Shown here: piece by piece, positions 17,042 to 62,583 of the stretch
How the letters are laid out: every line of letters begins with the position of its first letter
Position numbering within the stretch: the first letter of the stretch is position 1
Source of the DNA: Patescibacteria group bacterium
Lineage (GTDB): Bacteria > Patescibacteriota > Patescibacteriia > 2-02-FULL-49-11
DNA length: 64,000 nucleotides
Reading direction: 5' to 3'
Assembly: GCA_041645165.1 (NCBI GenBank)
Contig: JBAZQN010000012.1
Location: 636 to 64,635 of the forward strand
The notes under the pieces: model-generated
Told to the model about the DNA's origin: nothing
Databases searched by the model: none
Seen by the model: the letters and a program-made list of their open reading frames with translations, nothing else
Made by a program: the position numbers and the translations under genes

Positions 17042-17276
17042 ATGCCCCGTAATACAACATCCAAGAGGGAGGCAGGAGTCTTAAGAGTATGCAGGTAGGG
17101 TAGTAAGTGTAGCTAATGTCACAAGAAGAAAAGTAGAAAAGTTTATTGCGAGCCTCCCTCACCGATCGCCACACCCACGATAAACCTTGATATGCATTAT
17201 TCTATGCCAGTCGCATTCATTTACCATAATCATCTAACGCCCTCCGTGTGTGGCGTTGGATGTTGATATACGGGGT
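17042..17276 (+). repeat. Repeat family C copy 2 (structured leader-like element)
   Basis: Same atgccccg(c/t)aatacaacatccaagagggaggcag / gcctccctca / gcgttggatgttgatatacggggt blocks as 12678-12907, again ending right before the start codon (GTG 17277) of the downstream gene. Confidence 0.6.
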
Positions 17277-18530
17277 GTGAAATACGCATTTTTTTTAGGA
17301 AATACACCCGCGCTGTCTCTGGCGGAGCTCTTTGCCGTGAGCGCGCGCTTAGGGGTGGATTTAAAAATTGTGCGATGGAGCAAGGAAGTGGCGCTCGGTG
17401 AGACTGCGAGCAATGTGAGTATGGATCAGCTGTTTCACGCGCTTGCGGGTTTGGTCAAAGTAGCAGAAATAACCAAGGCAGTTCCCGGCGCCCTTACGGC
17501 GGAGCAGGTACGATCCATGCTGCCCACTACGGGAAGGAAATTATTTTTTGGCTTATCCGCATACGTGCTCGAGCCTAGCGCCAGAGCAATAGATTGCCGC
17601 AAGCTTGGCCTCGGCGTCAAGCGCCTGCTTAGTGAAGAGGAGCGGAGCGCGCGTTTTGTCACCTCCCGCGAAGATACGCTTTCGTCGGTGGTTATCAATA
17701 CCAATAAATTACTGTCGGAGCGCGGGGCAGAAATTGTGGTGCTGTCTTTGCCCAACGGCGCTTATCTGGGGAGAACGCTCGCGGTGCAGCCGTATGAGGA
17801 ATATGCGCAGCGTGATATGGAAAGGCCGGCACGGGACGCCAAGATAGGAATGCTGCCTCCTAAAATTGCGAGGATGATGGTGAACCTTGCCCGAATGAGC
17901 CCGGGTGAGACACTGCTAGACCCTTTTTGCGGTTCCGGTACGGTGCTGCAAGAGGCGGCGCTTTTGGGGATTGACCGTCTTTTGGGCAGCGATCGTGACA
18001 AGAAAGCAGTTGAACGCACCCGCATAAATCTTGAATGGCTCGGCAATTTTACGTCGCAGATGAAGACCGCGTCATTTTCTATGCAATTAATCGCGTGCAG
18101 CATAGAAGAATTGCCTGCGCATATGCCCCAAGGCGGTATACATGCGATTGTCACCGAGCCTTACCTGGGACCGCCGCGGATAAAGCCATTATCCCCGGAA
18201 GAGGTGCCGCAGATGCGCATGGAGCTTGCGTCCCTGTATCGCCGCGCGTTTGCATCATTTACCCGAGTGCTTGCACCGGGAGGACGCGTGGTGATGATAT
18301 GGCCGGTGTGGAGAGTAGCGGGGAAATCCGTATCAAGAACTGCGGTGGCGTTCCTCGACCTTGAGCGCGCGGCGCAGGAGGCAGGACTCGCTGTCATCGA
18401 TCCGTTTCTTGAACATTTGCGCCCGGTCCCCGGCGCCGAGCACGGGTATCTCAAAGAGCGGCACTCGCTCCTGTATCAGCGCGAGGATCAGCAGGTGATG
18501 AGGGAGATACGGATATTTAAAAAAACATGA
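17277..18530 (+). CDS. Putative RNA (guanine-N2/adenine-N6-type) methyltransferase, UPF0020/Trm11-like with THUMP-like N-terminus
   Basis: SAM motif I LLDPFCGSGTVLQEAALLG, motif IV-like IVTEPYLGPP; track ORF starts at GTG 17250 inside repeat C, the analogous start is GTG 17277. Confidence 0.65.
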   Translation: MKYAFFLGNTPALSLAELFAVSARLGVDLKIVRWSKEVALGETASNVSMDQLFHALAGLVKVAEITKAVPGALTAEQVRSMLPTTGRKLFFGLSAYVLEPSARAIDCRKLGLGVKRLLSEEERSARFVTSREDTLSSVVINTNKLLSERGAEIVVLSLPNGAYLGRTLAVQPYEEYAQRDMERPARDAKIGMLPPKIARMMVNLARMSPGETLLDPFCGSGTVLQEAALLGIDRLLGSDRDKKAVERTRINLEWLGNFTSQMKTASFSMQLIACSIEELPAHMPQGGIHAIVTEPYLGPPRIKPLSPEEVPQMRMELASLYRRAFASFTRVLAPGGRVVMIWPVWRVAGKSVSRTAVAFLDLERAAQEAGLAVIDPFLEHLRPVPGAEHGYLKERHSLLYQREDQQVMREIRIFKKT

Positions 18531-18567: not shown

Positions 18568-18687
18568 GTCATTCCCGCCCCGTATCACGGTACGGGGTAA
18601 ACTCCGGCGGGAATCCAGAAAATTAAAGTAAAATCGATGTTTTGTTTGTTTTTTATGTCTGGATTCCAGATCTCGGTCTGGAATGAC
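18568..18687. mobile_element. MITE-like element family A copy 1 (TIRs gtcattcccgcc ... ggaatgac, internal ccccgtatcacggtacgggg hairpin)
   Basis: Terminal inverted repeats and conserved core (ggaatccagaaaa...aaaatcgat...tttgtt...tctggattcc) shared with copies at 35969-36144, 38009-38131 and a partial copy at 47472-47590. Confidence 0.7.
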
Positions 18688-18784
18688 AATCGGAATTAGG
18701 TTAGCAAGTTAGTATAATCTGCAAATAAATACTAATGATACGAATACCTACCAATCCAATATTCAAACACATTCGCAGCCATTA

Positions 18785-18899
18785 GCCCGCCTGCCAACGT
18801 CTGTCATTAATGAATGTGCTACCCTTGGTGTATGCACTAACCTTTCTCATCGCTCCCTACCTAAGGGTAAGGCTATGGCGGGCAGGTATCATTCGCATG
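18785..18899 (+). repeat. Repeat family B copy 2 (downstream of ychF)
   Basis: Near-identical to 20067-20181 (cccgcctgccaacg(t/c)ctgtcattaatgaatgt...ctacctaa(g/a)ggtaaggctatggcgggcaggtatcattcgcatg); similarity extends about 50 bp on each side. Confidence 0.7.
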
Positions 18900-18940
18900 A
18901 ATTCGTATATTGGTATTAGCCTTAGTATATTGATATCAAA

Positions 18941-20002
18941 TTATACACTAAATCTAAAATGGACGACGTCTCCGTCTTGAACCATGTACTCTTTCCCTTC
19001 GAGGCGTAAGGTGCCTTGTTCTTTTGCCTTAGCTTCCCCTCCTGCCTGCACGAAGTTTTCGTAGCCAATCACTTCTGCCGTGATAAATCCGCGCTCGAAA
19101 TCTGAATGGATGACGCCCGCCGCGTGGGGCGCTTTGGACCCCCTGCGCACCGTCCAAGCCCTTGTTTCCTTTGGGCCGGTGGTAAAGAAAGTGATGAGGT
19201 CGAGCGTTTCGTAGGCGGCGTGGATGAGTTTGAAGAGGCCAGTGCGCACAAGGCCGAGCTCTTTGAGGTCATCATCCGAGAGTTCAGCGAGATCTGCCTC
19301 TTTTTTTATATCCATCGTTATGACGCCCTCTCTTTCGTTCTCCACCTTACCAGGGGGAGAGACAGTGGGGGTGTTTTGTTCTGTGATATTAAGCACAAAA
19401 AGGAGCGGCTTTACGGTGAGCAGGTTTAAGTCCTTTATTTTTTCCTGTTCTTCTGCGCTCAAATGCGCTTCATTTACCCAATTGCCTTGGTCGAGCGCGC
19501 GTTTGCATTTTTCGTAAACCGCAAAGAGCTCCCGCGCTTCCTTAATGCCGGCGTGCGCGCTTCCCTCGATTGACGTAATGCGTTTCGCGACGGTGGCAAG
19601 GTCCGCCATGGCAAGCTCAAGGTGGATGGTCTCCTGGTCGCGTGTGGGATCCACCGAGCCTTCTACATGGAGCACATTCGGGTCTGGGAACGCCCGCAGC
19701 ACCTCGCAAATGGCGTCTGTTTCGCGGATATGGGAAAGGAATTGGTTCCCCAAACCCTCTCCTTTATGCGCGTTTTTTACCAACCCTGCGATATCCACGA
19801 ATTCCACGATGGTGGGGATAATCTCCTTTGAATCGCTAAGGCGAGCGAGCATCTCCAGCCTCTCATCCGGCACTTTCACGACGCCCACGTTGGGGTCAAT
19901 GGTGCAAAAAGGGTAATTCGAAGCATCCACTTGCTTTTTCGTAAGTGCGTTAAACAAGGTGGATTTGCCGACGTTCGGGAGGCCGACGATGCCGATTTGC
20001 AT
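18941..20002 (-). CDS. ychF: Ribosome-binding ATPase YchF (Obg family), TGS C-terminal domain
   Basis: MQIGIVGLPNVGKSTLFNALTK...NYPFCTIDPNVGVV N-terminal G domain; TGS domain at the C-terminus; the track ORF (start 20119) is a 39-codon read-through of repeat B, true ATG at 20002. Confidence 0.92.
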   Translation of the reverse strand: MQIGIVGLPNVGKSTLFNALTKKQVDASNYPFCTIDPNVGVVKVPDERLEMLARLSDSKEIIPTIVEFVDIAGLVKNAHKGEGLGNQFLSHIRETDAICEVLRAFPDPNVLHVEGSVDPTRDQETIHLELAMADLATVAKRITSIEGSAHAGIKEARELFAVYEKCKRALDQGNWVNEAHLSAEEQEKIKDLNLLTVKPLLFVLNITEQNTPTVSPPGKVENEREGVITMDIKKEADLAELSDDDLKELGLVRTGLFKLIHAAYETLDLITFFTTGPKETRAWTVRRGSKAPHAAGVIHSDFERGFITAEVIGYENFVQAGGEAKAKEQGTLRLEGKEYMVQDGDVVHFRFSV

Positions 20003-20066
20003 AGATATGATACTAATATACGAATGAATACTAATGATACCAATACCTACGAATTCGAAGTGATTC

Positions 20067-20181
20067 GCCCGCCTGCCAACGCCTGTCATTAATGAATGTA
20101 TTACTCTTGGTGTATGCACTTACTTTTATAATCGTTCTCTACCTAAAGGTAAGGCTATGGCGGGCAGGTATCATTCGCATG
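20067..20181 (+). repeat. Repeat family B copy 3 (immediately upstream of ychF, same orientation as copy 2)
   Basis: See copy 2; the two copies directly flank ychF as direct repeats. Confidence 0.7.
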
Positions 20182-20254
20182 GATTAGTATATTGGTATCT
20201 TATGTATTTTATCAATTCCTTGAATCTTCGTCACCTTTCTCGTAAGATGAAGCT

Positions 20255-20913: not shown

Positions 20914-21032
20914 CCCCTGTTTATGTATCAAAATACACATTATCTGCGTAAATCTGCGACCGCGCCGCAGGCGCGCCCCCCGCGAAGCGGGATCTGCGTT
21001 AATCTGCGATATGCGCACAGCGCATATGTTTC

Positions 21033-29448: not shown

Positions 29449-29820
29449 ATGGAATCGAAACAGTCATTATCGCATCCTACTATACCAACTACGACAGGAA
29501 GGGTAAAAAAAGTATCGTTAAGGTTCATTATAGCCGTAATTTTATTTATTATTTTACTTTTTACTTATTTCATTGCCAAGGATCTTTTTATTAGTATAAC
29601 CGTCGTGCTATTTTGGCCATTTTCAATTTCTCTCTCGCTATTTTTAATTCTTTCCCCTTTTATTTATATTTGGAGGCTAAAGAAGAGCTGGAGCTTTTTA
29701 AATATATGCATTGCGCTCATCAGCGCTGTCATCCTCACTATAGTAGTATATTTTGGTTGGGTCGTTTTTTTAAACTACATGTTTGATGTTATGGGCGAAG
29801 CACTCTTGAGCACATTTTAA
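29449..29820 (+). CDS. Small polytopic membrane protein (123 aa), family 1 of the AT-rich island
   Basis: About 30% GC; 3-4 TM helices; paralog of 31028-31342. Confidence 0.55.
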   Translation: MESKQSLSHPTIPTTTGRVKKVSLRFIIAVILFIILLFTYFIAKDLFISITVVLFWPFSISLSLFLILSPFIYIWRLKKSWSFLNICIALISAVILTIVVYFGWVVFLNYMFDVMGEALLSTF

Positions 29821-29925
29821 AAGTGCCATTTCTGCGGGCTTGTTGGGTCTTTTATATGAAAGTCACTAAACCACAACAGTTGTATATATTAATAATAGTA
29901 TCATTAAGATTTTGGGTTTTAAATA

Positions 29926-31027: not shown

Positions 31028-31342
31028 ATGGAATCGAAACACTCATTAACAGGAAGGGTTAATAAAGTATCGTTATGGTACAATATAGCCGTAATTTTAA
31101 TTGTTATTTTATTTTTTACTTATTTCATTGCTAAGGATCTTTTTATTGAGATTACATCGTGGGCAATGGTCATTATGCTGCCTCTTTTAAGTCTACTAAT
31201 AATCCTTTCCCCTTTTATTTATATTTGGAAGTTCAAGAAGAGATGGAATTTTTTTAAACGTATGCATTGCGCTCATCAGCACGGCAATCCTCACTATGGC
31301 AGTATATTTTGGTTGGGTCGTTTTTTTAAACTACATGTTTGA
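31028..31342 (+). pseudogene. Frameshifted paralog of 29449-29820 (small membrane protein family 1)
   Basis: DNA 31255-31380 is near-identical to 29695-29820 but the reading frame diverges after ...FKKRWNFFKRM; the original C-terminus (VYFGWVVFLNYMFDVMGEA(L/F)LSTF) is retained in another frame. Confidence 0.5.
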
Positions 31343-31412
31343 TGTCATGGGCGAAGCATTCTTGAGCACGTTTTAAAAAGTCCCATTTCTGCGGGCTTGT
31401 TGGGTCTTTTAT

Positions 31413-31694
31413 ATGAAAGTTACTAAACCACAACAGTTGTATATATTAATAATGGTATCATTTGTTATCGACGCTCTGTACTACTACGGTTATCTAAACC
31501 TAATTGATGTATTTATTGATTACGCGATAGGCTGGTTTGTTCTCGCGCTTATCGGATTCATTGGTTCATATTTCCTGCTATACACAATCGACATCAAACA
31601 CAAGGCAGCTTTGAGCATTGTCATCACAATCGGCGTGCTCATCAATTTAGGATTCACTTTCTTCTGGTATATTCTTAAAGATTTCGGGTTTTAA
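31413..31694 (+). CDS. Small polytopic membrane protein (93 aa), family 2
   Basis: MKVTKPQQLYILIMVSFVIDALYYYGY...; 85-bp upstream region duplicated at 29820-29905. Confidence 0.55.
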   Translation: MKVTKPQQLYILIMVSFVIDALYYYGYLNLIDVFIDYAIGWFVLALIGFIGSYFLLYTIDIKHKAALSIVITIGVLINLGFTFFWYILKDFGF

Positions 31695-35463: not shown

Positions 35464-35973
35464 CTAGTCATACTTTAGAGAAGATTTATCTATAAGGCGA
35501 GGCGTGTGTTCTCGGGTAAAGATAAGTACGCCGATAAAAATAAGCACAATGCTGATAAGTACTGCACCTGCAGTGCTGGGATCATCGCGCGTAGTGGCAA
35601 CACCGGCGACTTGGCCGGTCGAAATAGTGACCGGCAGCTTGATGCCTGAAGCGGCATTTGTGGCTCGAACGGTTAAGGGACGGCCTAGGATGGAAATATT
35701 AGTTTTTGAGTTTATGGGTTGTTGAGTTTGTGAATAGTATTCAATGGTGACTGTGGCGGATTTATTGGGCTCCAAGAGGAATGTGGTGGGAGTAATGATG
35801 AATGGAAAGAGGCTGTCGTTTTCCACTTCGTAAATCACGGTTTCACGGGAGGGATTCATCACGGTAAACGTACCTGTGATTTTTTTATTTGCCGCGCCAT
35901 GGAGGGTCAGTTCTCGGGGCGAGACTGAAATACCTACAGCGAGTACAATAGGAGGAAGCATCCATAACGTCAT
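35464..35973 (-). CDS. Small secreted/anchored surface protein (N-terminal hydrophobic segment, beta-rich domain, C-terminal TM anchor)
   Basis: True start MTLWMLPPIVLAVGISV at 35973, where the ATG lies inside the proximal TIR (ggaATGac) of MITE A; the track N-terminus (…IPACAGM) is MITE read-through; C-terminal AVLISIVLIFIGVLIF anchor. Confidence 0.6.
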   Translation of the reverse strand: MTLWMLPPIVLAVGISVSPRELTLHGAANKKITGTFTVMNPSRETVIYEVENDSLFPFIITPTTFLLEPNKSATVTIEYYSQTQQPINSKTNISILGRPLTVRATNAASGIKLPVTISTGQVAGVATTRDDPSTAGAVLISIVLIFIGVLIFTREHTPRLIDKSSLKYD

Positions 35974-36144
35974 TCCCGCGCAGGCGGGAATCCAGATGAA
36001 AACAAAAAATAAAAATCGTAATGACTGTTTGTTTATCTTTGTTTCCCCGATCAGAGCCTGCCCCGTACTTGATACGGGGTCGGGGGCGGCGTCTGGATCC
36101 CGCATCAAGCCTGCCCCGTACCGCGATACGGGGTGCGGGATGAC
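35969..36144. mobile_element. MITE-like element family A copy 2 (with internal duplication of the ccccgta...tacgggg hairpin)
   Basis: gtcattcccgcgcaggcgggaatccag ... cgggatgac termini; supplies the start codon of 35464-35973. Confidence 0.7.
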
Positions 36145-36216
36145 GTTGAATAGTGTTTGGAAGCTCATACCCCCGGCGTTTAAGTGCGTTGTGAATGCGT
36201 GTGAATGCGATTTGTG

Positions 36217-38013
36217 TTACTGCGCCTGTCCCCAAAAGACGAGCGTACCTTGCGATACGCCTGTTTCGTTCCCGCTGGGCACGGAGAGCGCAACCTCCAC
36301 CGTTTGAGTTGATTGCGCATTAAGCGATGTGTCAAAAGATCTCCATGAAGAGCCCGAAAGCCGCAGGTTGTCGACAAAGAGCTCGTCGCCGCGGACCGCG
36401 CTGGTGAATGAAAGAGGCGCGTCTCCAGTATTGCGCAGGAGGAGCGTGCGGTCTGCGGCCCTGCCTTGCGGTACATTGCCAAAGTCAAGAAGCGAAGGCT
36501 CGACCGTGAACCCTAGGGTTACGCCGTCCGCATTTCCGCCACCGGGCGCGGGAACCACATAAACCAATAAACCCACTGCGTTGCCATCTCCTATCGTGAG
36601 GGTGACCCGATTGGAACGGATTGCGCCGTCAGCCTCCGCCCAAATGGTCCACACGCCATCCGATAATGTAATAGTCGCCTCGCCTTGCGCGTCTGTCTGT
36701 ATTGGTTCAGTCCCCCCATAGAGCGTGGCGGCAATCGGACTCCAACTATTATTGCTGAATTGTTGAATTGTTATATTGGCAGATTGGCCGTTGATCGTGC
36801 GGGTGGTAGATGCTGAAAGGCGCAAGGGACTCCACTCGAATTCCCCATAATACCAGAGCACTTCATCTCCCGGCGCTAATGCATAGTCAGCGGCGCCACG
36901 GTCAGGGAGTGCCCAGTTGACGCGGTAGAGCCACCCCTTTGTCCCTTGCGCCGCATCGTTGTTGATCGTCTTTACATAAGGGCCGAACGAGGTTTGCGGG
37001 ATATCATAGGTGAAGCCGCACGCAGATGCGGCAGCGGGAATGATATCTAAGGCGCTGGCTAGTTGCGGAGCGAGCGCGGCGGTGCCGGTGCAGACTGGGT
37101 TTAACGATCCTTCTATGCGGTAGGACACGGTCGTGGCATGTTCTGGCACAAAGGAGGCGACCGGGAGGCTTTTGCCTGCGAGCGCGATCACGGCATATGC
37201 GGTTGAGATCGGCGTGAACGAGGTTTCATCGGTGAAGGTGGAGGAATGCGCAAAACTGCCATTCGGCTGCTGCAGCGCAAGGAGGTGGTCAAGCGCGTCT
37301 TTGCCATTCTTTTCCCATGCGGAGGAAGCGGGATCCTGGCCTGCTTTTCTCACTGCGTGCGCAACCCAGGCGGAGGACGATGTGTCGGAAGGATCCGGCT
37401 CACTGGTATAGGGATTGGCGGGCCAGAAGTAGGGGAATCCGCCGTCCTCATTTTGCGTGCCCTTCAGCCAGAGAAGCGCTCTTGAAATTGGCTCTTGGGA
37501 TGGGGCGACTCCCGCTTCTATAAGCGCCTGAATGGCCGCTGCGGTGGTGTTGGTATCGCCCCATGACCCGTTCTCCTGCTGTGCATTGAGGAGAGTTGTT
37601 TTTGCGTCTTGGATCGCCGGGTCGTCAGAGGCCTCTCCTGCCGCAGAAAGCGCAAGAATTCCGAAAATATCATCGTTGAGAAGCGCAGGGTCGCCGATTT
37701 GGCCGTTGGTGTGGAACGTGTTGAGCTTCGCGACCAAGTCGATCCCGGTAAAAGTGCGGGGATCGTATCCTGCCGCGACAATCGCGAGTATCGGCGCTTC
37801 CATCGTGATGGCAGAGCTGGTATCTGCCGTTTTTAGGTATTCGGCAGGGACTTCTGTGTCTCCTGCGGCTACAAGCGCCATGGTAGCCCAGGGGGCGGCG
37901 GGTTTGGATTTGAGATAGGTAATGGCGCGGGAGAGAGGGGCGTCTGCTTGCAATGAGAGTGACGGGATAAGGGATGAGGCGATGAGGAGCGCGGTTACGC
38001 ACCTCACTGTCAT
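36217..38013 (-). CDS. Secreted prenyltransferase/squalene-oxidase-repeat (alpha/alpha-toroid) protein with C-terminal beta-sandwich domains
   Basis: Signal MTVRCVTALLIASSLIPSLSLQA; repeated QxxxGxW-like motifs (QQENGSWGD, TQNEDGGFPY, LQQPNGSFAH); true start at 38013 inside the MITE A TIR (gggATGac); the track N-terminal 62 aa are MITE read-through. Confidence 0.7.
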   Translation of the reverse strand: MTVRCVTALLIASSLIPSLSLQADAPLSRAITYLKSKPAAPWATMALVAAGDTEVPAEYLKTADTSSAITMEAPILAIVAAGYDPRTFTGIDLVAKLNTFHTNGQIGDPALLNDDIFGILALSAAGEASDDPAIQDAKTTLLNAQQENGSWGDTNTTAAAIQALIEAGVAPSQEPISRALLWLKGTQNEDGGFPYFWPANPYTSEPDPSDTSSSAWVAHAVRKAGQDPASSAWEKNGKDALDHLLALQQPNGSFAHSSTFTDETSFTPISTAYAVIALAGKSLPVASFVPEHATTVSYRIEGSLNPVCTGTAALAPQLASALDIIPAAASACGFTYDIPQTSFGPYVKTINNDAAQGTKGWLYRVNWALPDRGAADYALAPGDEVLWYYGEFEWSPLRLSASTTRTINGQSANITIQQFSNNSWSPIAATLYGGTEPIQTDAQGEATITLSDGVWTIWAEADGAIRSNRVTLTIGDGNAVGLLVYVVPAPGGGNADGVTLGFTVEPSLLDFGNVPQGRAADRTLLLRNTGDAPLSFTSAVRGDELFVDNLRLSGSSWRSFDTSLNAQSTQTVEVALSVPSGNETGVSQGTLVFWGQAQ

Positions 38014-38131
38014 CCCCGACCAGAACCTGCCCCGTACCGAGATACGGGGTCGGGGATCCAGAAGGGAAAAATAGACAAAAATCGATTTGTTTTTGTTCGT
38101 TTGTCTGGATTCCTGCTTTCGCAGGAATGAC
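38009..38131. mobile_element. MITE-like element family A copy 3
   Basis: gtcatccccgaccagaacctgccccgtaccgagatacggggtcggggatccag...aaaatcgatttgtttttgtt...tctggattcctgctttcgcaggaatgac; supplies the start codon of 36217-38013. Confidence 0.7.
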
Positions 38132-38152
38132 ACCAGCTGTGTGCGCATATAA

Positions 38153-38378
38153 GAAATAAAAAAAATCCACTCGAGGGAGTGGATGGTCTTAAAGCGCAAA
38201 GCATAAAATTGCGCATAAGGACCATGGTATAACTCTGCTCGGAGTCATGTGAGGGGGTTACTTTACTCCAGCGACCGGGCTTGTCCCGCCAAAATTTTGC
38301 TCTGCAAAACTTAGGCGGGCGTTACCGTTGCGGCACAGCGGGGGAATGAAACCCCACTTCCCTGTGAGTAAAGAGTCT
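38153..38378 (-). ncRNA. Candidate small RNA (about 210 nt) on the minus strand, ending in a strong intrinsic terminator
   Basis: Minus-strand hairpin aucCACUCccucGAGUGgau followed by U8 (38153-38184); upstream 190 nt folds into a multi-stem structure (UCUUUACUC/GAGUAAAG closing stem; CACAG..CUGUG; GCCCGCC-UAAG-UUUUGC-AGA-GCAAAA-UUUU-GGCGGGAC); no plausible ORF. Confidence 0.4.
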
Positions 38379-38383
38379 TGTGA

Positions 38384-39199
38384 ATGAGCTTTTCAAGCTT
38401 ATATCGGTTTGAATGGCAGGGCAAGTGGATAACTAGGGATGCGTCTGATATAATGAAGAGAGAATATATTTCTTTTATCAACGTTATAATCATGAATATG
38501 CCGCAGCGCCTCGGTTCATCCTCACCTCGCCGCGTCGTGGTATTTGTGGGTGTTATTGCGCTCATCGGGGTATATGTAGGATACGCGGTGGTTTCTCGTA
38601 CGTTTAAAAATCAGACACGCCAGGGCGCTCCTGCACCATCTGCAACCATGACGCAAGAGCCTACCCCAGATGAGCTGGCAGCGCGGCAGAACGTATGGAC
38701 CAGCGATGATCCGGTACGGGGGAATATTAAAGCCCAGGTGTCCATTGTGGAATTTAGCGATTTCGAGTGCCCTTATTGCCGTGAGGAGTATCCTATAATA
38801 AAGCAGCTCCTCGATACGTATGGAGCCCAGGTCCGGTTCCAGTACCGCGATTTCCCTATTTCTGAACCACACCCCAATGCGCAGAGTGCGGCAGAGGCGG
38901 CAGAGTGCGCGAGCGCCCAGGGCAAGTTTTGGGAATATCATAATATATTATTTGAGCATCAAGACAGCCTTACGCGCGAAGACCTCGGAAGGTATGCGCG
39001 CGAGGTCGGGCTCAATCTCAAACTTTTCAATCAGTGCCTGGACGGCCGTTCTAAAACGAATGAGGTGATTGCGGACTTTAACGATGGGCGCGCGTTAGGA
39101 GTTGGTGGCACGCCGACTTTTTTTATAAACGGAGCAAAGTATGCGGGAGTGTTTACCTATGAAGAATTGAAGGGGATTGTTGAGGAGTTATTAAAGTGA
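38384..39199 (+). CDS. DsbA-family thiol:disulfide oxidoreductase (thioredoxin fold, CPYC), membrane-anchored
   Basis: Active site FECPYCREEYP; TM VVVFVGVIALIGVYVGYAVV; likely true start at Met 38492/38498 (MNMPQRL...). Confidence 0.8.
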   Translation: MSFSSLYRFEWQGKWITRDASDIMKREYISFINVIIMNMPQRLGSSSPRRVVVFVGVIALIGVYVGYAVVSRTFKNQTRQGAPAPSATMTQEPTPDELAARQNVWTSDDPVRGNIKAQVSIVEFSDFECPYCREEYPIIKQLLDTYGAQVRFQYRDFPISEPHPNAQSAAEAAECASAQGKFWEYHNILFEHQDSLTREDLGRYAREVGLNLKLFNQCLDGRSKTNEVIADFNDGRALGVGGTPTFFINGAKYAGVFTYEELKGIVEELLK

Positions 39200-39297: not shown

Positions 39298-39351
39298 GTC
39301 CCGCTCTTTGATCATTTTTTTAAATGTTAGCGGGATCCCGCCTAAGCGGGA
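39298..39351. repeat. Repeat family E module (gtcccgc...gcgggatcccgcc-taa-gcgggag) preceded by about 95 bp of ttgaaa/caaaat low-complexity sequence
   Basis: Contains GCGGGATCCCGC 12-bp perfect palindrome; sister modules at 39991-40047, 40820-40875, 42772-42828; the flanking AT-rich part is near-identical to 41900-42030. Confidence 0.7.
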
Positions 39352-39373
39352 GAAATTGATAATTATATTAAGT

Positions 39374-39990: not shown

Positions 39991-40047
39991 TGTCCCGCAC
40001 TTTGAATTATTTTATCTAAGGTATGCGGGATCCCGCCTGAGCGGTGA
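39991..40047. repeat. Repeat family E module (identical 85-bp copy at 42756-42840)
   Basis: tttgaactttgtcccgcactttgaattattttatctaaggtatgcgggatcccgcctgagcggtgagattttgaaatt. Confidence 0.75.
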
Positions 40048-40066
40048 GATTTTGAAATTTGTCATT

Positions 40067-40819: not shown

Positions 40820-40875
40820 GTCCCGCACCATTATTTTCTAAATTTAAGGTATGCGGGATCCTGCCTAAGCGGGAG
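40820..40875. repeat. Repeat family E module
   Basis: gtcccgcaccattattttctaaatttaaggtatgcgggatcctgcctaagcgggag. Confidence 0.7.
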
Positions 40876-40901
40876 AAATTGGAAATTGGGATTTACGTCA
40901 T

Positions 40902-42771: not shown

Positions 42772-42828
42772 GTCCCGCACTTTGAATTATTTTATCTAAG
42801 GTATGCGGGATCCCGCCTGAGCGGTGAG
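42772..42828. repeat. Repeat family E module (identical to 39991-40047)
   Basis: 85-bp exact duplicate. Confidence 0.75.
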
Positions 42829-42864
42829 ATTTTGAAATTATGGTGATGGCTGGTCGCAATAACC

Positions 42865-47173: not shown

Positions 47174-47471
47174 TCCCTGTTTTAGCAATCCCAAACAAAC
47201 CAACAATATATAACAGTGTAACAGTCTAGCAATTCAACAGCATATCGATGTAACAGTTTAACACTGTAACAATTTAACAATTCATCCAACAAGGGCTCTC
47301 CTCTGGTGGTTGGGGTGTATACACCCAGAGTGAGCAATAACTTCTCTATCCAGATCTGCGTTTATCTGCGTGTGATCTGCGAAGATCGGCGTTATTGTAC
47401 TCTTTCCCCCCTAACCTCCAGTTGCGAGTTCTGGTTTCAAGAACTCATTGCGGCTGGAGGTTGGTTGTTTT

Positions 47472-47590
47472 TCATCCCGCACCGAGCCTGCCTGAACTTG
47501 ATTCGGGGATGCGGGATCCAGAGGACACCTCTTTCGTCATTCCGGATTTATTCCGGAATCCAGAAAAAACAAAAATACAATAACGATATT
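47472..47590. mobile_element. MITE-like element family A, partial/rearranged copy
   Basis: tcatcccgcaccgagcctgcc...ggggatgcgggatccag and gtcattccggatttattccggaatccagaaaaaacaaaaa; right TIR missing. Confidence 0.5.
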
Positions 47591-47717: not shown

Positions 47718-48383
47718 ATGGCAGAAGAAGCGGAAAAACAGACAAACGCCGGGCCGATCACGGTCAGCAAGGATGTGCTCGACATCGTGATCAACGAGGC
47801 CATTCGGCCACTTGCGCGGCATCTGGTGATGTCCCTGCCAGATGATGTATTAAAGGATCGTGCAAGATTGTGGTCGATGGCTACTCCGGCGCTCGCGTTT
47901 GCGGTGGCGCGGGCATTGCCGGACAAGGGGGTCTGGAAGACGGTGGACATTTTCCAGAAGGAATTTTTCTCCGAGGTCGGGCAGGCGTTGCGCGACCGTG
48001 CGTCCGGCATGCTTAAAGAAATTGCCACGCACGAACCGAAGATTGCGCACTTGCCGAAGGCCGAGGCGGTTTCTTTTGGATTGGTGTTTACGACCCTCGG
48101 CAGGACATCGCAAGGCGTGGCAGTACTTAAGAGGATCGGATCTTACGGAGGGGACGGCCTTGCATTGTACGCGCATTTTGCTGGCATCCCGGCGGCCCAG
48201 CTTGAACAGCAATTGAGAGGGTTGAAGCCAGAGGCGGTAGACGCCCTAATGCTTACCTTCAAGAAGCCGGAAAAACAACCCAGCGCCCCGATCTTGCCAA
48301 AGATGACAGCTAAACTCGACGGCTGGAAGAGTCGGGCGCGGCAGGCAGCTGACAAATACAATAAAAAGAAAGGATGGTGGTAA
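47718..48383 (+). CDS. Hypothetical protein (221 aa), first gene of the plus-strand hypothetical cluster
   Basis: No recognizable domain; 3-bp gap to the next gene. Confidence 0.5.
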   Translation: MAEEAEKQTNAGPITVSKDVLDIVINEAIRPLARHLVMSLPDDVLKDRARLWSMATPALAFAVARALPDKGVWKTVDIFQKEFFSEVGQALRDRASGMLKEIATHEPKIAHLPKAEAVSFGLVFTTLGRTSQGVAVLKRIGSYGGDGLALYAHFAGIPAAQLEQQLRGLKPEAVDALMLTFKKPEKQPSAPILPKMTAKLDGWKSRARQAADKYNKKKGWW

Positions 48384-59973: not shown

Positions 59974-60320
59974 TTGTAAATCCTCCTAAAGAGAGTTTTT
60001 TGCCGAGAGTAAGGTCTCGGCGCCTATTCTGAATAGTTGTCTACAACGAGCGGAGAAAGCGAGATGATGAGAAGCTGGAAGTTGGAAGCTGGAATTTAGC
60101 AAATGAAATATTCTAGCTTCTAGATTCTATCTTCTAACTTCTTCCGATCTTGTCCTCTCTGCTCGCTGCGACAATGACGCGGATGTACGCGGAACGTCAC
60201 GCTTGGCTAGATCGCGGATATACGCGGATGTGTATCTGCGTTGATCCGCGTTTTGATCTGCGTTAATCCGCGATTAGTTGGTTGGCGGTCTGTGGGGCTT
60301 TTTGACGGTGGAATATCGCT

Positions 60321-60641: not shown

Positions 60642-61219
60642 TGATTGTCGGAGACCAGCTCCGACGCTACCAATCAATTCCCACAGATCGCCAACCAAGG
60701 TGATCTGTTTATTTTTGAATTTTCAACGAACGTTCCGCTTGGTAACTCCTCCTTGCTTCCTCCTCTTAAGGTAAGAGGAGGTGAGGTGGAGTTATGTGGA
60801 TCGTGATCTCTGATCCGGAGAGAATGAGGGGAGAGACTTCCCGCGAAGCGGGAAACCCGCATCCCATCCGGATCAGAGAGAACGAAGTCCTTTATCTTAA
60901 CAAAAATACCCTCTTTGTCGAGAGGGCCGGCGGTAACAGTTAAACAGTTTAGCAGCCTGACAATTTGTCAGTGTAGCAGTTTAACAGTTCGTGCTGATTC
61001 CGGTCTCTCTCGGAATTGTTTTGGCCAAGTCTCTCGATTGGCGCTTGTATCGCGGACTGACGCGGAACGTCACGCTTGGGCTTCTCGCGGAATTACGCGG
61101 AAAAGTGTCTGCGTGGGTCTGCGTTTAGTCAGCGAATGTCTGCGATTTTTCAAAGTTAACAGGCCATTATAGCGCAGCCGCAGGATTTGTCAAGGGCCTA
61201 AGGGGCATGGTAGGATAAT

Positions 61220-61718: not shown

Positions 61719-62583
61719 GGTATTTGAATAGCACGTCGCAGGCCCGTATGAGGGCTTTTTTATTTTAAGCTCTTGACAACTTCATAATTGATATGTTAGG
61801 GTGCACCTTCCCTTCAATATTAAGATTCACGTATAAATAGTCTGTATAGGTCTGCGATATGCGTGAAATGTAAATTTTGTAGGGGCGTGGAGCACCAACA
61901 GACGAATTGCAGCTTAAAGAACCGGAAGGGCTTGAAAAAGCCCAGAGAGGAAGCACAAGGAGGCATAAGGTATCGCTCCACCACGATTTTGGCAGGAGCG
62001 TTTTTTGTTGTAACTGACTTGGAATTTTCGATGTTTATCCACCCTATCATTTCTATCCGTCTTATTAGTTTTATCCAACTTATCAAAACATAACCATTTA
62101 ACCATGTAGCCATTTAATAACAGTCCGATTCCCGCCGTCTTTCCGGACGGCAATAGGTGACCCGAAGACAATCGCGATCTGCTCCACAGTTGCGGTTTGC
62201 TCGCCGGCAGTATCACCTATTGCTATCTGGGATGACAAAGAGTGTACATTGAAAATTTAAATACCAATACATGCCTCGACTGGCGCGCCTTGGGCAGAAT
62301 CCTCAAAAAGTTCCTCTCCCTAGTAAGGGAGAGGTGTAGGTGAGGGTGTACAACAATTTAACAGTTTAACAGTGTAGCAATTTAACCATGTAGCATTGCA
62401 TCAATGTAGCAGTTTAACAATTCACCAAGGGTTTCCTCCCAGCGTGCGTCAGTCATGAGGCAATTAAAAAACCAAAAATAGCCGGTTGGACTTGCCCCGT
62501 AGTGAAACGAAGTTTCTACTACTGGGGTGTGCAATTCCGGCAGAACTTCCTCCTTCAAAACCAATAGAGGGAAGAAAAACATC

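Follow-up and report, generated by a model that had tools for sequence, protein, structure and literature searches.

Hairpin-pair elements of the NTS/dRS3 type in the signal-peptide coding regions of two adjacent Patescibacteria genes: probable in-frame insertions

We analysed a stretch of 64,000 nucleotides (nt) of a Patescibacteria group bacterium (contig JBAZQN010000012.1 of assembly GCA_041645165.1; hereafter the window), and within it a family of short palindromic elements, two copies of which lie at the 5ʹ ends of two adjacent minus-strand genes, here called the large and the small gene. Each element is an inverted pair of hairpin modules of the type known as the Neisseria Transformation Sequence (NTS) or Ssn-related motif (SRM), arranged around a palindromic A-rich/T-rich spacer. 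A preliminary description, made from the letters of the window, had taken the ATG inside the terminal repeat of the element as the start codon of both genes. Comparison with orthologues led us to a different reading, namely that the elements have probably been retained as in-frame insertions within two signal-peptide coding regions, in the manner of the Rickettsia palindromic elements (RPEs); initiation probably continues at the original ATGs, and the repeat ATG perhaps serves as a secondary start. The element copies are thus most likely translated as a part of the signal peptides, and are not start-codon donors, as far as can be judged from sequence comparison.

Three full copies of the element and one partial copy were found at the positions given in Table 1, as had been described before. 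The layout of an element is GTCAT-(hairpin)-ATCCAG, an A-rich run, CGAT, a T-rich run and CTGGAT-(hairpin)-ATGAC. The module flanks GTCAT and ATCCAG were near-invariant in the 14 modules compared (from the window and related loci); the hairpin stem between them was variable and covarying, with compensatory changes in 3 of its 7 pairs. The spacers between the inverted modules are A/T-rich and 43-97 nt long, and the whole element of the small gene can be folded as one long hairpin. [quoted passage not shown] No parent insertion sequence (IS) or transposase with matching ends was noticed in the window, a genome-wide search not having been made. The only Rfam match above gathering thresholds in the whole window was a tRNA-Asp, the elements remaining unmatched. 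The peptides IPACAGM, RFWSGM, VIPAKAGIQ and DSRLRGNDV, listed in the preliminary description among the open reading frames (ORFs), were indeed translations of the element.

The module at 35968-35995 (CGTCATTCCCGCGCAGGCGGGAATCCAG) agrees with the 28-nt Neisseria NTS consensus (CGTCATTCCCGCGMAVGCGGGAATCYRG) with 0 mismatches, and the sequence at 38105-38132 (minus strand) with 3 mismatches. When up to 3 mismatches were allowed, these were 2 matches in the window, one of them exact, and 0 in 100 shuffles; the matching of the NTS in the source study tolerated 1 mismatch (PMC11893778). Inside the exactly matching module lies the core of the dRS3 repeat, ATTCCC-N8-GGGAAT (35972-35991, ATTCCCGCGCAGGCGGGAAT), and several other modules have variant cores (ATCCCC, ATTCCT). 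Similar modules were also found in the Patescibacteria loci L016, L027 and L041. SsnA, a small single-domain GIY-YIG nuclease (cd10448) with a gene often flanked by the motif, binds the single-stranded DNA form of the NTS and cleaves it, and SRMs are widespread among bacteria (PMC11893778); Patescibacteria go unmentioned in that paper (Nat Commun 2025, PMC11893778). The six-frame ORFs of the 64-kb window contained no GIY-YIG (Ssn-like) motif, which says little for the genome, and no GIY-YIG Pfam match was obtained for 10 window ORFs, nine of them small.

We also noticed a second palindrome, CCCCGTA-N6-TACGGGG with a short tail (about 24 nt; 18577-18600, 36058-36081, 36109-36132 and 38024-38047), which sits within loops of the hairpin modules or occurs on its own inside element 2, and which is likewise inserted in the large-gene module of the orthologous locus L005. 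It appears to be a separate repeat targeting the module loops. The intergenic element copy 18568-18687 is adjoined by two 146-nt direct repeats (18771-18916 and 20053-20198, 88% identical) that flank the gene of a ychF-like GTPase.

The position of the elements relative to the original start codons was revealed by orthologous loci with and without an element. In the longer loci the order dsbA, riboswitch, large gene, small gene, era and rRNA methyltransferase is kept; shorter contigs show only a part of it. The large gene contains an element in the window, L005, L006 and L007, and none in L008/L009/L092, L093 and L094; the small gene contains one in the window, L093 (partial), L005, L007 and P0129 (judged from the peptide), and none in L006, L008, L009, L092, P0131 and L098. 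Element-less large genes begin with MRHTRL..., MPHLTR... or MKKKFQ...; their ATG lies about 17-25 nt past the riboswitch terminator, and the signal peptide is normal in each of them. Element-less small genes begin with MKFIL... or MKLIL..., and their signal peptides, mostly of 23-24 residues, are cleaved before VGISVSP. The ATGs and leaders of these starts align with ATGs that all element-bearing loci have kept upstream of the element: the TATG at the ancestral start of the large gene is invariant in an alignment of 7 loci (3 of them element-less), and ATG 36168 of the small gene aligns, behind a conserved intergenic leader, with the start ATGs of the element-less L008, L006 and L092. The NCBI entry P0001 ('DUF4430 domain-containing protein'), identical to the large protein, also starts at the upstream ATG, with MRTQLVSF. 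From the ancestral ATG to the element there are 17 nt in the window and 23 nt in L005 for the large gene, and 24 nt (as in the window) or 19 nt for the small gene, contrary to the earlier view that the elements are placed precisely at the starts of the genes. Since the upstream ATGs are conserved in the element-bearing loci, the insertions lie inside the signal-peptide coding regions, which speaks against both a start or 5ʹ untranslated region (5ʹ-UTR) module and a precise insertion at the starts; the element-less orthologues start upstream of the insertion point, unlike either option that had been proposed for them.

The closest relatives, L008 and L092 (85-86% identical), have neither copy. 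In place of a large-gene element they have (L008 3826-3945, L092 2823-2940) a different signal peptide of 38 residues (MRHTRLPRPLRLVLFALLAAGLFANPW...), which cannot be aligned with that of the window, and this lineage seems to have exchanged its entire pre-sequence. No element is present in P0124, whose long basic signal peptide is unrelated, and the contig of P0121 begins within the gene. A metagenome scan for close orthologues gave 3 loci and no further element-bearing case, and a genome scan added one close relative, L009, of the same lineage as L008 and with a scaffold gap at the key spot. In the Liptonbacteria orthologue L041 (38% identical), the 5ʹ UTR contains a solo NTS-like module (2965-2991) located past the B12 riboswitch terminator and before the true ATG (3011); the module's own ATG is out of frame, which indicates that the module is not always a start donor and that it recurs at such positions.

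The reading frame across the elements is conserved. The distance between the ancestral and the repeat ATG in the large gene is 135 nt in the window, 144 nt in L005, 105 nt in L006 and 126 nt in L007, and in the small gene 195 nt in the window, 135 nt in L005 and 111 nt in L007; despite the differing element lengths, each of these seven distances, from all the complete element-bearing cases, is divisible by 3. The ancestral frame is free of stops up to the repeat ATG in 7/7 cases, and the other two frames contain stops in 8 of 14. The elements are stop-poor because their A-rich half is almost T-free and their T-rich half almost A-free. Leaving aside the 24-nt inserts, the length changes between parts of orthologous copies are +3, +12, +3 and +6 nt, or else are compensated, as in L006 (spacer -5 nt, module -1 nt) and in the small gene of the window (leader +5 nt, middle +55 nt). 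Assuming about 4 independent chances of loss, the chance of a kept frame would be roughly (1/3)^4, or about 0.01.

The copies in each gene are orthologous between loci. The window shares the stem CCCCGA/TCGGGG of the large-gene 3ʹ module with L005 and L006, and the small-gene 5ʹ module CCCGCA..CTTGA..TGCGGG with L093; the stem sequences of orthologous copies were not found in other copies of the same genome. A neighbour-joining tree of the large proteins has element-bearing loci in both of its sub-clades, (P0007,P0006),(P0005,P0004) and P0008,(W,(P0002,P0003)). Judging from these relationships, we favour one old insertion in each gene, with subsequent losses; alternatively, there may have been repeated site-specific insertion. 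That the family was mobile is seen from the resemblance between the copy at 18568 and the composite large-gene module of L005.

On the minus strand, the terminal GGRATGAC contains the repeat ATG, at 35973 in frame with MTLWMLPP... and at 38013 in frame with MTVRCVTALL..., and this part of the earlier proposal stands for both genes. As a start codon of the small gene, however, the repeat ATG gives pre-sequences of only 12-13 residues with no K or R (MTLWMLPPIVLA, MTVWLIFPFSAYS and MTMWLTLPDQTAA), and the uncharged run is only 8 residues long in L007. Read through from the ancestral ATG, the small gene encodes a segment rich in K/R and, after it, 17-26 uncharged residues in a row, as in RKKNRKNR-FYFPFFFWIPAFAGMTMWLTL-PDQTAA, where n-, h- and c-regions can be recognised as in a signal peptide; further examples of predicted element-encoded peptides are SIFVYFSLLDPRPR and FLFFVFIWIPACAGMTLWMLPPIVLA. 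The A-rich codons of the element specify K/N/Q/R/T and the T-rich codons F/L/C/S/V, and since the element is palindromic, the same basic-then-hydrophobic order results in either orientation. At the RNA level, a stable hairpin (-13 to -28 kcal/mol, with -28 kcal/mol for the 3ʹ module of element 1) immediately precedes the repeat AUG, no Shine-Dalgarno sequence was found at a usable distance from this AUG, and the ancestral AUGs are in a U-rich or unstructured context, as in the element-less orthologues. The choice of ATG by the ribosome and the signal-peptide function of the extended peptides are what we infer from these features.

Several observations weigh against initiation at the ancestral ATGs. 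The large gene, when read from the repeat ATG, has a canonical signal peptide (MTVRCVTALLIASSLIPSLSLQA) of 23-26 residues (23 in the window), and read-through places about 35-48 additional K/R-rich residues ahead of this intact signal peptide, resulting in an unusually long pre-sequence of 58-71 residues. A clear Shine-Dalgarno sequence is absent from both upstream ATGs as well; the use of this signal is patchy in the genome, which makes the argument from the RNA context of the repeat AUG weak. The terminal repeat is read as ..G-M-T in 7/7 cases, and not in the other open frame (..N-D), in keeping with some importance of the repeat ATG, the seven cases reflecting only about 2 independent insertions. 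L095, which has no recognisable element, starts with ATGACC and thus with a 17-residue uncharged pre-sequence (MTMLSVLPVFHFSTAHA), indicating that short uncharged pre-sequences beginning with MT can exist. Finally, the frame statistics come from few, phylogenetically related lineages, and the nested inserts, being 24-nt units, preserve the frame by themselves.

Taking these points together, in-frame retention behind the original starts would have proceeded as follows. One copy would have been inserted long ago into each of the adjacent genes, 17-24 nt past the original start codon, and initiation would still occur at 38148, directly behind the cobalamin riboswitch terminator, and at 36168. The ribosome would read through the element in frame and produce a stretch rich in K/N/R/Q, then a stretch rich in F/L/I and WIPAxAGMT, resembling a signal peptide's n- and h-regions. 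In the small gene, the insertion would have split the old h-region, so that the element would now supply the n-region and a part of the h-region; in the large gene, the element would be an N-terminal extension before an intact signal peptide. The repeat ATG would be an in-frame internal methionine codon, which may serve as a secondary start, mainly for the large gene. Somewhat more speculative is the possibility that the hairpin-pair repeat was co-opted as coding sequence, its A-rich arm providing the n-region, and its T-rich arm with the terminal repeat the h-region, most clearly in the small gene. Such a repeat would have been under a double constraint, of the DNA or RNA hairpin and of the open frame, since before the split of lineages whose large protein is 63-67% identical to that of the window, a reading that we put forward only tentatively.

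It is rather unlikely that the two genes differ in their starts, the large gene being translated mainly from the repeat ATG, or from both ATGs as long and short isoforms, and the small gene depending on read-through that begins at the ancestral ATG or at an internal TTG/GTG. The two genes do differ in how good a signal peptide begins at the repeat ATG, internal TTG starts were called in L002 and L004 (P0128), and a ribosome arriving from upstream would open the hairpin and could permit internal initiation; however, the frame is conserved in the large gene as well as in the small one, which would not be expected if the upstream ATG of the large gene were unused. Still less probable, in our view, is that the repeat ATG is the real and sole start of both genes, the element being a 5ʹ-UTR or start module and the upstream ATGs mere relics. 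That gene callers took the repeat ATG for P0004, P0008 and P0130 would agree with this, as would its in-frame position in 7/7 cases, the canonical signal peptide that it gives the large gene and the element-less ATGACC start of L095. The upstream ATG would then have been kept needlessly, in frame and without stops in 7/7 cases, across lineages as far apart as those just mentioned, while the small protein would be left with the short uncharged pre-sequences described above (with the run of 8 in L007), the AUG would have to be used against a stable hairpin without a properly spaced Shine-Dalgarno sequence, and in L041 the module ATG, located in the 5ʹ UTR, would be out of frame. That the elements are neutral junk, inserted repeatedly, recently and with a site preference into genes that may be decaying, with frame and openness kept by coincidence, is very improbable: the family has been mobile (the composite module at 18568 resembles that of the L005 large gene), the elements are intrinsically stop-poor and the closest relatives L008 and L092 are without both copies, but both proteins are full-length and well conserved, the large one with a high-confidence fold, the insertion sites are identical, orthologous stems are common across both sub-clades, and the indels are compensated.

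The two genes encode, as had been proposed and as Pfam and AlphaFold2 support, a secreted alpha/alpha-toroid protein and a small beta-domain protein anchored at its C-terminus. The large protein matches the Pfam families SQHop_cyclase_C and DUF4430 (the latter with E 1.3e-9), and its AlphaFold2 model has a mean pLDDT of 90.7. The top 15 PDB matches of the model in Foldseek comprised intrinsic factor, transcobalamin and haptocorrin (E 2.9e-10 to 5.7e-8), and the predicted fold is transcobalamin-like, an alpha6/alpha6 barrel with a DUF4430-type beta domain; DUF4430 is the C-terminal domain of transcobalamins (PMC4350170). The small protein matches Motile_Sperm and Cep192_D6. The putative aptamer upstream of the large gene scored 38.2 bits with Rfam RF01482 (E 7.7e-5; clan CL00101, the cobalamin riboswitches), under the gathering score of 50, and the same position in orthologues gave scores above gathering (L006, 52 bits; L005, 48.5 bits with AdoCbl-II vs 36.5). 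The terminator-like hairpin with its T-run is kept in all orthologous loci, and we read it as the expression platform of the riboswitch. TTG 38199 as a start of the large gene was rejected, since the surrounding stretch is the riboswitch terminator. The putative riboswitch and the transcobalamin-like fold together suggest that the two-gene operon is plausibly a B12-regulated cobalamin-capture system, with cobalamin binding predicted from the modelled fold. The window genome is close to Candidatus Uhrbacteria.

Table 1. Positions of the elements, genes and associated features in the window
Feature	Position	Strand	Remarks
Full element copy	18568-18687		120 nt; intergenic, between convergent genes 17250-18530 (+) and ychF 18941-20119 (-)
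Small gene	35464-36168	-	MSP/PapD-like Ig domain protein with C-terminal transmembrane anchor
Element 2, full	35969-36144	-	176 nt; within 5ʹ coding end of small gene
Element 2, 3ʹ module	35969-35995	-	holds in-frame ATG 35971-35973
Element 2, additional hairpin unit	36045-36085	-	followed by A/T-rich spacer
Element 2, 5ʹ module	36093-36144	-	nested hairpin inside
Ancestral ATG, small gene	36166-36168	-	24 nt upstream of element 2
Large gene	36217-38148	-	signal peptide, alpha/alpha toroid, DUF4430, Ig-like domains
Element 1, full	38009-38131	-	123 nt; within 5ʹ coding end of large gene
Element 1, 3ʹ hairpin module	38009-38061	-	CTGGAT-CCCCGA...TCGGGG-ATGAC; nested 24-nt hairpin in loop; in-frame ATG 38011-38013
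Element 1, spacer	38062-38104	-	A-rich then T-rich in gene sense; ancestral-frame translation QTNKNKSIFVYFS
Element 1, gene-proximal 5ʹ hairpin module	38105-38131	-	GTCATTCCTGCGAAAGCAGGAATCCAG in gene sense
Ancestral ATG, large gene	38146-38148	-	17 nt upstream of element 1
Terminator-like hairpin and T-run	38155-38184	-	ATCCACTCCCTCGAGTGGAT; from terminator scan
Putative cobalamin (AdoCbl) riboswitch aptamer	38220-38386	-	upstream of large gene
Partial/compound element copy	~47472-47590		two same-orientation modules and A-rich half spacer; intergenic, upstream of ORF at 47718
Intergenic unit arrays	47203-47283, 60934-60990, 62351-62423		
Further intergenic unit arrays	9975-10033/15421-15479, 20941-21010, 47353-47372, 60178-60274, 61051-61126		

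Other repeats were also observed in the window. A repeat of 56-79 nt containing GCGGGATCCCGCCTAAGCGGGAG (39311-39366, 40006-40061, 40834-40889 and 42786-42841) lies upstream of four successive plus-strand ORFs, annotated as rpiB, rpe and pfkB in orthologous loci; it carries a Shine-Dalgarno-like GGGAG, its copy 39311-39366 ends about 8 nt before a plausible ATG, and it could be a repeated leader or ribosome-binding-site module. Several intergenic regions hold arrays built from 8-nt units (TAACAGTN) and from ATCTGCGT / CGCGGAT-type units (Table 1), and a region of low G+C content (37-45%) contains a segmental duplication (29494-29905 / 31049-31462, 83-96% identical), the small ORFs of which have no Pfam matches.

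The start that gene callers assign to these genes varies (upstream ATG, internal TTG or repeat ATG), and comparison with orthologues offers a rule to settle it. The locus is a candidate B12-capture system of bacteria of the Candidate Phyla Radiation (CPR), comprising a transcobalamin-like surface protein under putative riboswitch control and its anchored partner. The NTS/dRS3/SRM family, tied to a nuclease acting site-specifically on single-stranded DNA and limiting transformation, would extend to the Patescibacteria, which probably depend on DNA uptake. A pilin-like gene is present in the window. If the proposed co-option is true, a palindromic element, acting as a cassette in either orientation, could quite generally provide CPR bacteria with new or repaired export signals. 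We found no paper on such repeats in Patescibacteria, nor on MITE-derived signal peptides in bacteria. A profile-free search of 1.84 billion protein representatives with the element-encoded peptide gave 3 matches only, two of which (P0132, 864 residues, and P0134, 225 residues) consist of repeated ..SFLRKQES.. units with 16 and 4 matched stretches, respectively, and probably represent false gene calls, the ORFs running across arrays of NTS-like modules in other organisms. With 2 of its 3 matches being probably spurious ORFs, the search is uninformative on the generality of N-terminal fusions; the two entries do show NIME-like arrays (discussed below) outside Neisseria.

Among the known repeat systems, the modules are comparable to NTS/dRS3/SRM, with which they have in common a hairpin with a covarying stem and conserved asymmetric flanks, and many copies. 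They differ from the Neisseria NTS in their host, in their loops, which often contain the nested 24-nt hairpin, and in that the copies studied here sit within ORFs. The layout of the whole element resembles an isolated dRS3-RS-dRS3 unit, similar to the NIMEs (neisserial intergenic mosaic elements), or a doublet such as the REPINs formed by repetitive extragenic palindromic (REP) sequences. NIMEs consist of inverted dRS3 repeats around 'RS' spacers of lower G+C content (about 50-150 bp, or 19-214 bp if RS is any sequence between dRS3 repeats) and are associated with surface-protein genes in Neisseria (PMC1797815). The elements of the window likewise have two inverted dRS3-type repeats that flank a spacer of lower G+C content. 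However, NIMEs are described as intergenic, Neisseria-specific and usually in arrays (PMC1797815), whereas the window elements are isolated single units, 2/4 copies being intragenic and in frame. With the REP/REPIN sequences, which are mobilised by the RAYT transposases, the elements share the inverted hairpin doublet, the conserved flanking oligonucleotide, the absence of a target-site duplication and the fold of the unit as a long hairpin; no RAYT or Y1 transposase was identified, however, and the motif belongs to the NTS/SRM family, linked in the literature to GIY-YIG nucleases. Classical MITEs, such as the Correia elements, are similarly short and non-autonomous, have terminal inverted repeats and may alter the expression of neighbouring genes or fuse with ORFs, but the present elements differ from them by having no target-site duplication (3 full copies) and no parent IS with matching ends in the window.

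A further parallel is provided by the RPEs, which are located in frame within protein-coding genes and have been reported in unrelated metabolic genes (PMC10969869). As in RPEs, a palindromic repeat of about 100-170 nt lies in frame in an ORF, is kept open, appears from its sequence to be translated, and is compatible with the function of the protein. The features by which RPEs are recognised (location inside an ORF, in frame, free of stops and in a conserved host protein) were found in 7/7 cases. Unlike RPEs, the elements described here belong to a different sequence family, are inserted in signal-peptide coding regions, and have a composition that mimics n- and h-regions. They would clearly exemplify, outside Rickettsia, the tolerance of coding sequence for a palindromic repeat, likely owing to this signal-peptide-mimicking composition. 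In these elements, repeats of the NTS/dRS3/NIME type are combined with in-frame palindromic insertion of the RPE type.

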